Positions 58,358 through 63,267 of a stretch of DNA of 64,000 bases are shown here, one piece after another (position 1 is the first letter of the stretch; every line of letters begins with the position of its first letter). Source of the DNA: Candidatus Riflebacteria bacterium HGW-Riflebacteria-1 (GTDB lineage Bacteria > Muiribacteriota > Ozemobacteria > Ozemobacterales > Ozemobacteraceae). The position numbers and the translations under genes were made by a program. Below the pieces are notes generated by a model that saw only the letters and a list, made by a program, of their open reading frames with translations, did not search any database and had not been told where the DNA came from. The stretch spans positions 282,735 to 346,734 of the forward strand of contig PGYB01000001.1 in NCBI GenBank assembly GCA_002839445.1, read 5' to 3'.

Positions 58358-60952
58358 TCAGTGACGTTCGTCGACGATAGGTTTGAGTTTGCCGGTGCGT
58401 TCGTTGCGCGGAAGACCACCGGGGCGGAACCACTCGATGCTGATGGTCATCCAGTTATCTTTGAGTGATTCAGCGATTTTGTAGCTGCCCTTTTTGAGCG
58501 CGGTGATAATCTTGTCGTCAGGCAAAGGCTTTTCGGCTTCGAGGCGGAGCAGAAGGTGGTCTTTACCGGCAACATGGCGCGCAACGACTTGAAAAGACTG
58601 GCTTACCGGCAAACTGTTGAGTCCGGCGGCGACATCGACGGGCATCAGGTTGATACCACCGATGACAAGCAAGTCATCGCAGCGGCCGAGAAGTTCGAAC
58701 GAGCGGCCGGAGAAGCCGCAACGACAGGTCGTTGCGGCCTGCCACCGGCCGAGATCACCGGTGCGATAGCGCACAACCGGCATCAGGATGCGCGTGAGGT
58801 TGGTGACCACCAGCTCGCCGGCGGCAGTCGGGTCGGCCGGCGGCCGCCCCGTCTCCGGCTCCAGAATCTCAACAAAGCTGTGGTCATCACAAACATGATG
58901 CACCGACCCGTCGAGATACTGACACTGCCAGCCCACCGGGCCTGTGTCGACACAGGCATACCCTGCCGACCTGATCAGGGTGGCTCCCACCGCCCTCTGC
59001 AGATACTCGCGCGTCTGCGGCCTTAAATGCTCGCCAGCATATAAAATCTTCTCTATTTTAATCGGCAATTTGCGCTTCTCGATCTCTTCGGCGAGATTGA
59101 TGATTATCGAAGGCAGCCCGACCACCGCATTTACTGCAAACAATCTGAGATACTTCAAGATGTTCTCAATATCAGAACCACCACCAACAGGCAACTGCAA
59201 GCAACCGATATTCTCAAGCGCTCGACCCGAAACGTTGAAACTCGTCCAGAGATTACCGGCAATAAAAAGGTTGGCTACCCGGTCTTCACGACAAATCCCG
59301 GCATTCTTGAATATTTCAGCCAGCAGATCGGTTGATAACCGGTATTCATCATTCGAATAAAGCGTGAACTTTGGTTCGCCGGTTGTGCCACCCGACGCGT
59401 AAACATAGGCGTCGGTCATCGGCCCGGTCAGAATGTCTTCTGATGCCGGCGGCGAGTTACGGTAAAAAGTCGCGCGGTCAAGCAGAGGCAGGCGCATGAA
59501 ATGCTCAAACCCGCAACCACCAGCCTTATCAAGCAAACCACGATAATAGGGTGACGGGTAAATTCTCGATAAAAAGTTCTCCACACGGCTTTCAGGTGTG
59601 CCGCGATACTCGACCCCTACCCACTCGACCAGCTGCCTGAGCATGAACACGCCATCGTGCGGCGCACCATCATGCCCTTCGCTCATGCCGCCGATCTCGG
59701 TAATTCTCTTCGCGCCAAGCTCCAGAAAGCTGTCGGCAAGCTGTTGCCTGGTTTCAGGAGTGCAGCACAACCCGACCGTCTGCAGATACGCCGCGAGAGG
59801 CCTTACTTGCTCAATCAGCTGCTCGCAGCTCTTGACCGTCTTGAAAAACAGGGTCCGGTTCAGGCACGAGACCTTGAAAACCGGGTCTTCTTCGAGAATC
59901 AGCGAAAAACTGAACGCTTCAGGGCACATCAGTCTGCCTTCGCCACGCGCCTGCATCATGCGCGCAATGTCTCTGACCTTGCGGATTTCGACCTTCTCGT
60001 CAAACCCGAGATTGCCAACCGGCAGTTCTTCTGACAGAGATACCATCTCGTCATAAAGCGCTTCCATCAGCAGATGCGTCTGTGCGGAAGAACCAAGAAC
60101 ATAAACCACATGCGGCGAAGAACACGCCTGCTGATCCCATAGCGAGAGATCCTGGGCCAGACCCTTGACCAGGTATTCAGGAACCTCTTTTTTCAGTCTC
60201 TGACCTTCTACAACAGCGAGAGAATAGCGCGGCCCGTTTTCGATAAGCTTTGTCGAAGCGCCAATACGCGCCTTAACTGAAAGCAGCGCATCATGTCCGC
60301 CCCAGAAAATCACTGTCAACTGGGCGTTCAACAGCGGCGTTTCGATCGACTCATCGCCGCCTTTCCAGAGAACAGCCGCCTGATTGGGCCAGATTATGCC
60401 TGCCGGATCATGCTCTTTTATACTCTCAATAAATAACACCGGAAACACCGGGTCTACGCGACTCATCTTCAGAATATTCGCGTTCTTGGTGATTATGCCG
60501 CTGACCAGACTGTCAACCGCACCAACAAAGACGTTGCCGGCAGTCAGATGCAACAGCACGCCACGCGGCAGCGCACGCAGTTGATAATCAAGATGTGGCC
60601 GTTCAAAACCAGCGTCAAGAACCGCCAGATTGCCAAGTTCGCCCTTGAGTCTCTTTTCAAGGCTTTCACGACGACAGATCGCACTTATCGCCTTAAAACC
60701 CTGCTCTATCATCTGTTCGCTGAAATCAGTCAACTTCGGCAAAATCTCCGCGGCCTTGCGGCGCAGGTGATAATCAGGGTCTGCCCATGCCTGCGCAACC
60801 TGGTCGAGAATTTCCAGAATGCAGGTCAGGTCTGGTCTGGCCGCCACGGCGGCCTTTTCAAAGGCTTCATCGAGAAGCTCGCTGGCGGTATCGGCGTTTA
60901 GCCAGTTCTGGTCCTGCTGTTGTCCAAATACGTATATTTTCTGCTTTTTCAT
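58358..60952 (-). CDS. fusion of LuxC-like acyl-CoA reductase (N-terminal) and PaaK/F390-synthetase-like adenylate-forming domain (C-terminal)
   Basis: N-terminal half has LuxC-like aldehyde-dehydrogenase-fold features. C-terminal half has SGGTTGEPKF (ANL AMP-binding P-loop) and YRTGD. Confidence 0.65.
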   Translation of the reverse strand: MKKQKIYVFGQQQDQNWLNADTASELLDEAFEKAAVAARPDLTCILEILDQVAQAWADPDYHLRRKAAEILPKLTDFSEQMIEQGFKAISAICRRESLEKRLKGELGNLAVLDAGFERPHLDYQLRALPRGVLLHLTAGNVFVGAVDSLVSGIITKNANILKMSRVDPVFPVLFIESIKEHDPAGIIWPNQAAVLWKGGDESIETPLLNAQLTVIFWGGHDALLSVKARIGASTKLIENGPRYSLAVVEGQRLKKEVPEYLVKGLAQDLSLWDQQACSSPHVVYVLGSSAQTHLLMEALYDEMVSLSEELPVGNLGFDEKVEIRKVRDIARMMQARGEGRLMCPEAFSFSLILEEDPVFKVSCLNRTLFFKTVKSCEQLIEQVRPLAAYLQTVGLCCTPETRQQLADSFLELGAKRITEIGGMSEGHDGAPHDGVFMLRQLVEWVGVEYRGTPESRVENFLSRIYPSPYYRGLLDKAGGCGFEHFMRLPLLDRATFYRNSPPASEDILTGPMTDAYVYASGGTTGEPKFTLYSNDEYRLSTDLLAEIFKNAGICREDRVANLFIAGNLWTSFNVSGRALENIGCLQLPVGGGSDIENILKYLRLFAVNAVVGLPSIIINLAEEIEKRKLPIKIEKILYAGEHLRPQTREYLQRAVGATLIRSAGYACVDTGPVGWQCQYLDGSVHHVCDDHSFVEILEPETGRPPADPTAAGELVVTNLTRILMPVVRYRTGDLGRWQAATTCRCGFSGRSFELLGRCDDLLVIGGINLMPVDVAAGLNSLPVSQSFQVVARHVAGKDHLLLRLEAEKPLPDDKIITALKKGSYKIAESLKDNWMTISIEWFRPGGLPRNERTGKLKPIVDERH

Positions 60953-60962
60953 GCCTGTTCCA

Positions 60963-62090: not shown

Positions 62091-63267
62091 TTCTCCACTC
62101 CTCGTCAAAGTCAGGCTGGCAACGCACCAGCAGCTCATACCAGCACTTCATGAACGCATCAAGAAAGCGCCGGTTATTATCGACCAGATTCAGATCCATA
62201 AAATCCAGATTCTCAAATGATCGCGAAAACACCAGAAAATCTTCGCGCAAACCCTGGTCATTGATGCGCATGGCCGGGAAATAAGCGCACGGCAGAAACT
62301 TTGTGTCAAGTGCCAGGCGCTGCATCTCAGGCTTGAACGCGTTAACCAGTAATTCGATGTAGCGCATGCCCGATTTTGAAGCCGCCTCACAAAACCACAT
62401 CATCGCATTGTGAATATCGCCGCCATTATAGCGGTAACCGACCATGACACCGTTGCCATCGATACGATTGAAGTTAACAAAAAAATCGGCGCTGCCATCG
62501 CGGGCCGAAAACAGCATGTTCGGGTCAGTAAACGGAAAAAAAACCTTCTGCATCAGGTCTTTATCCTGATATTGGTAGAACTTCCGACTCACCTCAGCGA
62601 GATCCTCGAGCAGGTCAAACTCAACCATCGCGCCCATTTTGCGCGGATCACGTTCGTCAAGAATCACTGTATGTGGCTCTTCAAGGTTCAATTCTTCGCG
62701 CGCGATCTTGTAAAAATCATGCAGTTCCGGAATAAGCATCGGTGACTGCCGACGATATTTCATTGAGTTGGGGCTCAGATACACTTCGAGTCCGTGCGTC
62801 TCAAAAGATTCGATTTTGCGCACATTAGGGAAAATGCCCAGCGATATAAAGCCAAGATGTTCGAGCAATACCTGCGGCGCAAAGCTTACTGTGCGTGTCG
62901 TCGCGTAAACCACATCGCAGACACGGGTTTTCTCGGTCAAAAGTTTAAGACCATGCCGGGTCATGGTGCGCATCAGATCCTGGCCGCGAAACTCATTTAA
63001 AATAGCAGCGGCGTAGGTTTTTCCGATCTTGTTCACCGGGTCGACAGCAAAGATTACCGAACCGATGAGGCGCCCATCCACCTTTGCCAGAAGCCATAAA
63101 TAACCGGGGTCTTCTACCTTGCGCGCGATTATCGTCGGGTCAGAAACTTCAGGCAAAGGATATTTGCCTTTATAAACTGCAATGTAATGATCTATGATCG
63201 CCTGAATGTCATCTTTCGAGGCACTGACCATGTCTACGACTCTACGATCCTGCAGTTTAAGCTGCAT
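62083..63267 (-). CDS. tandem GNAT-like acyltransferase
   Basis: N-terminal half has a GNAT-like core (LWLLAKVDGRLIGSVIFAVDP...). The C-terminal half looks like a second, degenerate GNAT fold. First gene of the operon. Confidence 0.4.
   Translation of the reverse strand: MQLKLQDRRVVDMVSASKDDIQAIIDHYIAVYKGKYPLPEVSDPTIIARKVEDPGYLWLLAKVDGRLIGSVIFAVDPVNKIGKTYAAAILNEFRGQDLMRTMTRHGLKLLTEKTRVCDVVYATTRTVSFAPQVLLEHLGFISLGIFPNVRKIESFETHGLEVYLSPNSMKYRRQSPMLIPELHDFYKIAREELNLEEPHTVILDERDPRKMGAMVEFDLLEDLAEVSRKFYQYQDKDLMQKVFFPFTDPNMLFSARDGSADFFVNFNRIDGNGVMVGYRYNGGDIHNAMMWFCEAASKSGMRYIELLVNAFKPEMQRLALDTKFLPCAYFPAMRINDQGLREDFLVFSRSFENLDFMDLNLVDNNRRFLDAFMKCWYELLVRCQPDFDEEWRIG

Follow-up and report, generated by a model that had tools for sequence, protein, structure and literature searches.

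A three-gene GNAT, LuxE and LuxC::ANL operon of an uncultured Riflebacteria-like lineage as a candidate minimal leupeptin-type pathway

The window, that is, the whole 64-kb stretch of DNA analysed here, contains three co-directional ORFs on its minus strand that an earlier note had rightly seen as a single operon: a GNAT acyltransferase, a LuxE-like acyl-protein synthetase, and a LuxC-like reductase fused to a PaaK-like adenylate-forming (ANL) domain. The question raised by this locus is what relatives of bioluminescence enzymes make where there is no luciferase. The note had proposed the activation, transfer and reduction of a carboxylate, leading to a fatty aldehyde or alcohol or to some acylated product. 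The reading favoured here, to which we give a probability of about 60%, is that the operon is a minimal leupeptin-type (leup-like) pathway, independent of non-ribosomal peptide synthetases (NRPS), in which discrete ATP-dependent ligases make a small N-acylated peptide aldehyde from free acids. The features of the locus are the following:

62083-63267, minus strand: GNAT gene, 394 aa, predicted two-domain (tandem) acyltransferase, in the position of LeupD
60963-62090, minus strand: LuxE-like acyl-protein synthetase gene, 375 aa, TTG start, LeupA homologue
58358-60952, minus strand: LuxC::ANL (PaaK-like) fusion gene, 864 aa, LeupB architecture
59621-60841, minus strand: LuxC-like thioester reductase domain of the fusion, residues 38-444
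58361-59590, minus strand: PaaK-like adenylate-forming (ANL) domain of the fusion, residues 455-864
63314-63342, minus strand: sigma-70-like promoter TTGACT-17-TATACT, scored 10/12
58315-58339, no strand assigned: GC-rich hairpin with 10 paired bases (terminator scan), likely terminator of the operon

The start/stop overlaps that had been described for both junctions hold for the first one, where the GNAT and LuxE genes overlap by 8 nt (LuxE TTG at 62090; GNAT stop TGA at 62085-62083) and where gene callers chose the same LuxE start position in relatives; the second junction is instead a gap of 10 nt between the end of the LuxE stop codon (60963) and the ATG of the fusion gene (60952). Some 47 nt separate the end of the -10 element of the promoter from the GNAT ATG and, since an alternative GTG at 63330 falls within the promoter element, the gene likely starts at the ATG at 63267. 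Nucleotide identity with the 97%-identical relatives, loci L004 and L005, sets in some 5 nt before the -35 element and extends from that point into the operon without a difference. At the other end, the hairpin sits between convergent genes and is kept in L005, even though the sequence past approximately 58280 is unrelated. An Rfam scan of 58150-64000 (E<=1) returned no match, and hence neither a riboswitch nor any other known RNA in the leader. The CGATTACG repeats reported upstream are indeed present, at 63762 and 63789, but they are not part of the conserved cassette. This motif is enriched throughout the window (8 found vs. 1.3 expected; other sites at 8210, 54927 and 58279) and, because its upstream copies lie about 420 nt outside the block shared with the closest relative and others occur elsewhere, it is not a feature of the operon.

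The operon is flanked by a convergent M16-like gene on one side and an unrelated upstream region on the other. A link between this 942-aa M16-like peptidase and the cassette was rejected as coincidence or insertion, because the likeness to an M16 gene located near a related Elusimicrobia cluster is marginal (30% over 91 aa) and the gene is missing from the corresponding position in L004-L006.

Domain annotation, proposed earlier as a check, was carried out with Pfam: the 864-aa protein matches LuxC (PF05893; 283 bits, residues 38-444) and AMP-binding plus AMP-binding_C_2 (residues 515-863), the middle protein matches LuxE (PF04443; 172 bits), and the first protein gives a weak GNAT match (24.6 bits). 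The mechanism of the luminous LuxC-LuxE fatty acid reductase comprises adenylation, self-thioesterification on the KGC cysteine of LuxE, transfer to a LuxC cysteine, and NADPH-dependent reduction to the aldehyde; the roles of the catalytic residues of both proteins have been described, and it is the DQQACFS motif of LuxC that carries the acylated cysteine (PMC9157457). The same core mechanism is predicted for the window proteins, whose residues align with those of this enzyme (PDB 7XC6). The window LuxE aligns with P. phosphoreum LuxE (7XC6_E; E 1e-35), including the C-terminal KGC motif, whose cysteine is residue 366 (codon 60993-60995, counted by hand), and it contains SSGTGG and GGGWK motifs. 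The LuxC domain aligns with 7XC6_A and places DQQACSSP opposite DQQACFS; its cysteine is residue 277 (codon 60122-60124) and the same motif is found in LeupB. The ANL domain shares fold and adenylation motifs with PaaK (PDB 4R1L, 2Y27; E 2e-35 with 4R1L), namely the P-loop SGGTTGEPK, RYRTGD and a C-terminal TGK lysine. Both motifs quoted in the earlier note (SSGTGG in LuxE, SGGTTGEPK in the fusion) are among these. The adenylation motifs are thus conserved, as are the catalytic cysteines of both LuxE and LuxC, and the enzyme classes originally proposed (adenylation, acyl transfer, and thioester reduction to an aldehyde) are right.

The clear Pfam matches to LuxC and LuxE and the conservation of both acyl-carrying cysteines would also suit a Lux-type fatty acid reductase, in which LuxE and LuxC turn a fatty acid into a fatty aldehyde or alcohol for a lipid, wax or signal, while the GNAT and the PaaK-like domain are accessory; besides, the LuxC domain is no nearer to LeupB (102 bits) than to luminous LuxC (112 bits), being about equally distant from both. 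We consider this quite improbable on several grounds: (i) the NCBIfam equivalog models for LuxC and LuxE score 135 and 147 bits, far under their cutoffs of 750 and 550, respectively; (ii) LeupA is a closer match to the window LuxE (210 bits) than luminous LuxE is (126 bits); (iii) neither luciferase, as already noted, nor LuxD was found next to the operon, the flanking genes scanned being unrelated, and neither these nor lipid-synthesis genes adjoin the cassette in any locus inspected; and (iv) a second adenylating domain, a GNAT and the MFS exporters of related clusters would be needless partners. Compared to the luminous system, the window has no LuxD or LuxAB, its LuxC has a second adenylating domain as fusion partner and is accompanied by a GNAT, and its likely substrate, instead of myristate, is an acylated amino acid or peptide.

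Aldehydes of the leupeptin type strongly inhibit proteases and give rise to pyrazinone signals, and the leup route produces such small protease-inhibiting peptide aldehydes without an NRPS. The characterised leupABCD leupeptin operon was reportedly studied by Li et al. in 2020; its LeupA is LuxE-like, LeupB is a LuxC::ANL fusion, LeupC a PaaK-like protein, and LeupD a GNAT. To our knowledge, this NRPS-independent route has been described only from a few Gammaproteobacteria, and it is said to be narrowly distributed. Our lead to leup was a Klebsiella surveillance preprint listing its components; a literature search on LuxC/LuxE/GNAT systems in non-luminous bacteria found nothing direct. The leup operon consists of an MFS transporter, a LuxE/PaaK-family protein, an acyl-CoA reductase, a PaaK-family ligase and a GNAT (bioRxiv 10.64898/2026.08.25.747093; PMC8283571), and hosts of leupABCD are Klebsiella michiganensis/oxytoca, Photorhabdus and Xenorhabdus (PMC11480411; PMC8283571).

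The K. michiganensis leup locus was fetched via a published leupA primer, and the published leupB_r primer maps within an 802-aa LuxC+AMP-binding ORF, i.e., LeupB, in which Pfam finds the same two domains as in the window fusion. The window LuxE is 32.7% identical to LeupA over 367 aa (E 3e-64), with a C-terminal cysteine in both proteins (KGCA in the former, RSCA in the latter). The fusion is collinear with LeupB over 746 aa, through both domains (27%, E 4e-62), and its ANL domain matches those of LeupB (33% identity) and LeupC (31% over 405 aa, E 6e-43). Homology search with the fusion gave 242 matches in many phyla; among the 120 listed, most are full-length and more than 100 span 95-100% of its length. 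It is, hence, not a miscalled PaaK and, with over 240 homologues, the previous description of such a fusion as uncommon was wrong.

The window operon resembles leupABCD in (i) its LuxE-like synthetase with a C-terminal cysteine; (ii) its LuxC::PaaK-like fusion, with the same domain order as LeupB; (iii) its two-domain GNAT, whose N-terminal domain appears to be related to LeupD; and (iv) its compact, NRPS-free organisation. It differs in that (i) it has neither a stand-alone LeupC ligase nor an MFS exporter; (ii) its GNAT gene is the first of the operon, while that of leup is the last; (iii) its GNAT has 394 aa, compared to about 294-305 aa in LeupD; (iv) the identity of its proteins to the Leup proteins is low (25-33%); and (v) its host belongs to an uncultured Riflebacteria-like lineage, not to the Gammaproteobacteria. 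A tblastn search of the 64-kb window for a LeupC-type ligase found nothing beyond the operon, and none adjoins the cassette in the Riflebacteria loci L004-L007; likewise, no MFS exporter is adjacent to the operon in the window or in those loci.

The window GNAT appears to be linked to LeupD through its N-terminal domain. The leupD gene of the fetched K. michiganensis strain is frameshifted; a reconstructed protein was used first and, then, the intact LeupD from a Salmonella plasmid. In hhalign comparisons, the GNAT family profile matched LeupD with probabilities of 95.7% and 93.3% over about 132 columns, versus 77.6% over 63 columns for a generic GNAT control, and an N-terminal D...YG..Y...P motif is common to both families. 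A 381-aa GNAT from a Streptomyces plasmid is homologous to the window GNAT over its full length (E 2e-37) and matches LeupD directly (E 7e-6). A homology search with the N-terminal fragment of LeupD yielded three truncated Klebsiella entries and no others. The C-terminal domain of the window GNAT is of GNAT fold, and no similarity between it and the second LeupD domain could be detected. The protein is modelled as two GNAT folds in one chain; since its halves share no sequence similarity (hhalign probability 0.3%), the tandem assignment derives solely from the predicted fold.

GNATs usually work with CoA thioesters, and the N-terminal GNAT domain keeps an R-G-x-D/G loop at the CoA-binding position. 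This would agree with a scheme in which the PaaK-like domain is a true CoA ligase for an unusual acyl-CoA (e.g., aryl-acetyl or branched), the GNAT acylates one amino acid, and LuxE and LuxC reduce it to a single-residue N-acyl amino aldehyde with no ligase-made peptide bond. Among solved structures and NCBIfam models, phenylacetate-CoA ligases are the nearest to the C-terminal domain of this fusion, and LuxC accepts acyl-CoA besides acyl-LuxE (PMC9157457). Nevertheless, the ANL domain is no PaaK equivalog (119.7 bits for TIGR02155, cutoff 646; 128.7 bits for NF041878, cutoff 700), it lies outside any paa catabolic context, its fusion to LuxC is a position common to LeupB, and the AMP-dependent ligases of leup are reported to make amide bonds (PMC11212599). 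This scheme is unlikely.

The GNAT-LuxE-fusion block, promoter and terminator included, is repeated in four other Riflebacteria loci (L004-L007); the flanks of these loci share no genes and their neighbours differ by locus. Matching longest-contig values suggest that 24 fusion/GNAT pairs lie on one contig each. In Wallbacteria, and in a metagenome lineage of unassigned affiliation, homologous GNATs are likewise found close to LuxE and the fusion. An MFS exporter was found in Wallbacteria, Streptomyces and proteobacterial relatives, and two MFS::tandem-GNAT fusion proteins were identified. Larger clusters from Rhodopseudomonas, Hippea, Marichromatium, Elusimicrobia and Streptomyces plasmids (L001, L003, L008, L012 and L014) have the same core: their LuxE and LuxC::ANL fusion share 34-40% identity with the window proteins, nearer than the Klebsiella proteins, and a GNAT is always present. 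Unlike the window, they carry one or two extra stand-alone ligases, in most cases along with an MFS exporter. In the proteobacteria and Elusimicrobia the GNAT is LeupD-like and bears an RsbW-like HATPase_c_2 domain at its N-terminus; in Streptomyces it is of the window type. The Streptomyces plasmid cluster (AMP-binding, MFS, 381-aa GNAT, acyl-protein synthase, 846-aa reductase) bridges the window and leup types. The 450-456-aa Pfam-less proteins of the Rhodopseudomonas and Hippea clusters were considered as window GNAT homologues and rejected; they are divergent ANL-like proteins.

These neighbourhoods bear on a further alternative, i.e., that the enzymes modify a macromolecule, for example through acylation or reductive modification of a glycan or protein, instead of making a free metabolite. 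Such a role has been proposed for luxC/luxE homologues, which are reported from flagellin glycosylation islands of Aeromonas and enterobacteria (PMC7874193, PMC4875605), the L006 cassette lies about 3.5 kb from flagellar genes, and the proteobacterial LeupD-like proteins with the RsbW-like domain adjoin partner-switching genes (STAS/RsbW/SpoIIE, in the Rhodopseudomonas and Marichromatium clusters L001 and L008). But the flagellar neighbourhood is not kept in the window, L004, L005 or L007, the cassette is unaccompanied by glycosyltransferase or sugar-nucleotide genes, and the existence of MFS exporters and of MFS::GNAT fusions suggests that a small molecule is exported, all of which makes this alternative highly improbable.

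What was observed in support of the leupeptin-type reading is that the proteins are homologous to and collinear with LeupA and LeupB, that their catalytic residues are conserved, that the genes are arranged as an operon, and that the cassette is conserved. From these we infer every chemical step, their order, the product, and the assignment of steps to LeupA-D. The pathway would proceed as follows: (i) with acyl-CoA as donor, the two-domain GNAT puts an N-acyl group on an amino acid or peptide; (ii) one adenylate-forming unit, most simply the LuxC-fused PaaK-like domain, adds a second residue by an amide bond; (iii) the LuxE-like enzyme activates the C-terminal carboxylate as an adenylate and then binds it in thioester linkage to its own Cys366; (iv) the acyl group moves to Cys277 of the LuxC domain; and (v) the LuxC domain, with NAD(P)H, reduces the acyl group and releases the aldehyde. 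The product is probably a short N-acylated peptide aldehyde or N-acyl amino aldehyde. A fatty aldehyde or alcohol, as initially suggested, is less likely because the domain set is that of a leupeptin-type pathway, whereas the option of an acylated product is compatible with the evidence. Leupeptin would need three ligase units and the operon has two; the predicted product would therefore be an N-acyl dipeptide aldehyde, with one residue fewer. Should the PaaK-like domain serve only to supply acyl-CoA, an N-acyl amino aldehyde would be expected. Outside the Gammaproteobacteria, no family member has an observed product, and the sequences give no substrate specificity.

A broader, rather doubtful proposal is that the LuxE and LuxC::ANL core plus a GNAT constitutes a large, mostly unrecognised family of NRPS-independent peptide aldehyde pathways, present in Riflebacteria, Wallbacteria, Elusimicrobia, Actinomycetota and several proteobacterial classes, in which the number of ligase units would set peptide length: two units in the window for a dipeptide product, three in leup for a tripeptide aldehyde, and four in Rhodopseudomonas, Hippea and Marichromatium. 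The Riflebacteria cassette might then be the minimal self-contained form, making a new protease inhibitor or signal molecule in an uncultured phylum. The leup core is now seen in an uncultured candidate phylum, cut to three genes and persisting as a promoter-to-terminator block, with related clusters in at least six other lineages, and the default annotations of 'bioluminescence', 'acyl-CoA reductase' and 'phenylacetate-CoA ligase' are corrected. The cassette is a small, easily synthesised gene set for finding new peptide aldehydes, and it could test how discrete ligases and a LuxE/LuxC pair share peptide assembly and reduction.

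The minus strand carries an operon of three head-to-tail ORFs which, on sequence comparison, appears to be a minimal form, with three genes, of a known type of pathway, namely the leup-type, NRPS-independent pathway for peptide aldehydes. The following elements can be distinguished:

63342-63314, minus strand: promoter-like element TTGACT-17-TATACT (sequence match)
62083-63267, minus strand: GNAT gene, first in the operon, ORF of 394 aa from ATG
62090 (likely TTG start), minus strand: LuxE-like gene, second, ORF of 375 aa, start preceded by a GAGGAG motif
60952-58358, minus strand: LuxC::ANL fusion gene (LuxC-like reductase plus PaaK-like adenylate-forming domain), third, ORF of 864 aa
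58315-58339: hairpin (likely terminator) after the last stop, with a convergent plus-strand gene beyond

ATG 63267 is the likely GNAT start because the alternative GTG at 63330 falls within the promoter-like element. The earlier note had start/stop overlaps linking all three genes. This holds for the GNAT stop (TGA, 62085-62083) and the LuxE TTG at 62090, which overlap by 8 nt (the overlapping start is also picked by gene callers in four related loci), but not for LuxE and the fusion, where a 10-nt gap follows the LuxE stop. The three genes form a single compact transcription unit; Rfam families gave no match in the operon region.

According to Pfam, the fusion contains LuxC (283 bits, residues 38-444) followed by AMP-binding and AMP-binding_C_2 (residues 515-863), the middle protein is LuxE (172 bits), and the first protein has a weak GNAT match. 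The NCBIfam equivalog models score far lower than their cutoffs: (i) LuxC, 135 bits vs 750; (ii) LuxE, 147 bits vs 550; and (iii) PaaK, 120-129 bits vs 646-700. The operon proteins are relatives of LuxC, LuxE and PaaK that stand outside those named families. Among solved structures, the counterpart of the fusion's N-terminal half is Photobacterium phosphoreum LuxC (7XC6_A), with DQQACSSP opposite DQQACFS, the motif that holds the acylated cysteine, and that of its C-terminal half is PaaK (4R1L). The middle protein can be aligned with LuxE (7XC6_E), where the GGGWK and C-terminal KGC motifs match. In LuxE, Cys364, within TRxxKGCxLS, becomes thioesterified; the acyl acceptor in LuxC is the active-site cysteine, and acyl-CoA is an alternative donor (PMC9157457). 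The adenylation motifs and both acyl-carrying cysteines are conserved in the operon proteins.

The leupeptin operon, leupABCD, was taken for comparison using published primers and coordinates (PMC8283571), the Klebsiella michiganensis DSM 25444 locus being found via the leupA_f primer. There, LuxE-like leupA is followed by an 802-aa ORF with LuxC and AMP-binding domains and, since the leupB_r primer maps within it, LeupB is itself a LuxC::ANL fusion. LeupB is collinear with the window fusion over 746 residues (27%, E 4e-62), LeupA matches the window LuxE (32.7% over 367 aa, E 3e-64), and LeupC matches the window ANL domain (31% over 405 aa, E 6e-43). By hhalign, the window GNAT profile matches LeupD over the N-terminal domain; the probabilities are 95.7% with the Klebsiella protein as reconstructed, 93.3% with the intact 294-aa protein of a Salmonella plasmid, and 77.6%, over half as many columns, with a generic GNAT control. 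At the level of sequence, the operon is thus homologous to, and collinear with, LeupA and LeupB. The Klebsiella proteins share 25-33% identity with those of the window, while uncharacterised clusters are closer (34-40%).

A complete leupABCD-like set lies on a conjugative IncF plasmid of Salmonella enterica (CP054717.1, 105717-111475), flanked by recombinase and toxin-antitoxin genes, its LeupB being 66% identical to that of Klebsiella; the leupeptin pathway may be plasmid-mobile in Enterobacteriaceae. In K. michiganensis GCA_010588125.1, leupD is frameshifted (9001-9919 of locus L011; calls of 149 aa and 93 aa). The DSM 25444 frame (locus L010) runs on across the frameshift point, with only ~93 codons of leupD within the locus.

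The earlier note proposed that a carboxylate is activated, transferred and reduced to a fatty aldehyde or alcohol, or to an acylated product. Four observations make a Lux-type pathway to a fatty aldehyde or alcohol less likely: the LuxC and LuxE equivalog scores are sub-threshold, the LuxE-like protein is a closer match to LeupA, every locus inspected lacks LuxD, luciferase and lipid genes, and a second adenylating domain and a GNAT are constant partners, joined elsewhere by exporters. The observations of that note largely stand, and its interpretation stands in part.

In PMC11212599, which cites Li et al. 2020, the amide bonds of leupeptin are attributed to separate AMP-dependent ligases and the aldehyde to a reductase. 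In a leup-type pathway in the window, (i) the GNAT would cap an amino group using acyl-CoA as source; (ii) one adenylating unit would form one amide bond; (iii) LuxE would load the C-terminal carboxylate on Cys366; and (iv) the acyl group would pass to Cys277 of the LuxC domain, to be reduced with NAD(P)H. As the operon has two ligase units where the leupeptin pathway has three, the predicted product is an N-acyl dipeptide aldehyde, or an N-acyl amino aldehyde should the PaaK-like domain be only a CoA ligase.

The first protein is best regarded, by modelled fold and not by sequence, as a tandem GNAT. In 30 of 33 family members, the Pfam match is confined to the N-terminal half, and hhalign found no similarity between the two halves. 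The family is compact: a search of 1.84 billion proteins at E<=1e-30 gave 148 representative clusters, almost all with a length of 370-410 aa. In two of these (P0291, 803 aa; P0315, 799 aa) an N-terminal MFS transporter is fused to the window-type tandem GNAT, which suggests that the acyltransferase works at an exporter.

Larger related clusters also exist. A Streptomyces plasmid carries genes for an AMP-binding protein, an MFS transporter, a 381-aa GNAT, an acyl-protein synthase and an 846-aa reductase. As this GNAT is homologous to that of the window over its full length (E 2e-37) and matches LeupD directly (E 7e-6), it ties the window type to complete leup-like clusters. The Rhodopseudomonas, Hippea and Marichromatium sets comprise an MFS transporter, a divergent ANL-like protein, a LeupC-like ligase, LuxE, the fusion and a 475-497-aa protein whose C-terminal two-thirds aligns with both LeupD domains (hhalign, 97.9%) and whose N-terminus is an RsbW-like HATPase_c_2 domain. 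STAS, RsbW-like or SpoIIE partner-switching genes adjoin the cluster in two of these three, which hints at a partner-switching module regulating the proteobacterial leup-like pathway. An Elusimicrobia set combines LuxE and the fusion with LeupC-like and LeupD-like proteins. An exploratory neighbour-joining tree of ANL domains (midpoint root, no support values) places the LuxE-like proteins in one clade and the PaaK-like domains in a separate group, pairs the two divergent 450-aa ANL-like proteins, and gives the Klebsiella proteins its longest branches.

The LuxC-PaaK fusion, previously considered uncommon, has 242 homologues (E<=0.001); of the 120 matches listed, the majority are full-length. 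Among these, the best belong to Candidatus Riflebacteria/Ozemobacteraceae (up to 97% identity), and further ones to Wallbacteria, Armatimonadetes, Elusimicrobia, Sericytochromatia, Rhodopseudomonas, Hippea, Marichromatium and Desulfuromonas. Given this spread over many lineages, the architecture is common. For 24 fusion/GNAT pairs, the longest contig recorded for the fusion and for the GNAT has an identical length, suggesting that the two share a contig. GNAT homologues with 40% and 37% identity are also found near LuxE and the fusion, the former in Wallbacteria (one contig) and the latter in an unassigned lineage.

The trio occurs in four Riflebacteria loci, each with different neighbours. 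Modification of a macromolecule by the operon enzymes has only anecdotal support: luxC/luxE homologues are reported in flagellin glycosylation islands, and one cassette locus lies near flagellar genes. In a comparison with the relative that has a 97% identical fusion protein, nucleotide identity sets in ~5 nt before the -35 element and extends past the terminator hairpin as far as ~58280. Similarity to Riflebacteria loci L004 and L005 spans only promoter, three genes and terminator (~58280 to ~63346), with abrupt loss on both sides. Thus, promoter, genes and terminator behave as one block, and either the cassette has moved or its flanks have been replaced. No recombinase or repeat was identified at the junctions (~58280, ~63346).

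The CGATTACG repeats noted earlier in the 480-bp upstream region are indeed there, but that region lies outside the conserved block. The window has 8 copies vs 1.3 expected (12-mer with <=2 mismatches: 12 vs 3.0) and a perfect 11-nt inverted repeat (63760-63770 / 63788-63798). GATTAC/CGTAAT hexamer runs (CGATTACGATTACG) occur, mostly intergenically, at 8210-8223, 54922-54934, 58279-58292 and 63757-63813; downstream of the operon, one coincides exactly with the end of similarity to the closest relative. Two further genes of the window deserve mention:

55371-58199, plus strand: M16-family protein, 942 aa, secreted-looking (Peptidase_M16_C, HLLEH motif)
46672-52308, plus strand: ORF of 1878 aa without Pfam match

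The M16-family gene (GC 0.58-0.60 vs ~0.50 around) is missing at the corresponding position in related loci, where the fusion is directly followed by the GIY-YIG / guanylate cyclase / M50B / ~1900-aa series found at 46672-55334 in the window. The M16-family gene has the look of an insertion. The 1878-aa ORF has a counterpart of 1906 aa in another genome of Riflebacteria (L006), again beside the M50B peptidase gene.

In the literature searched, a leup-type pathway is described neither in the Riflebacteria lineage nor in such a reduced form. The cassette is not mechanistically surprising, but it gives a small entry point to a far broader, largely unannotated family.
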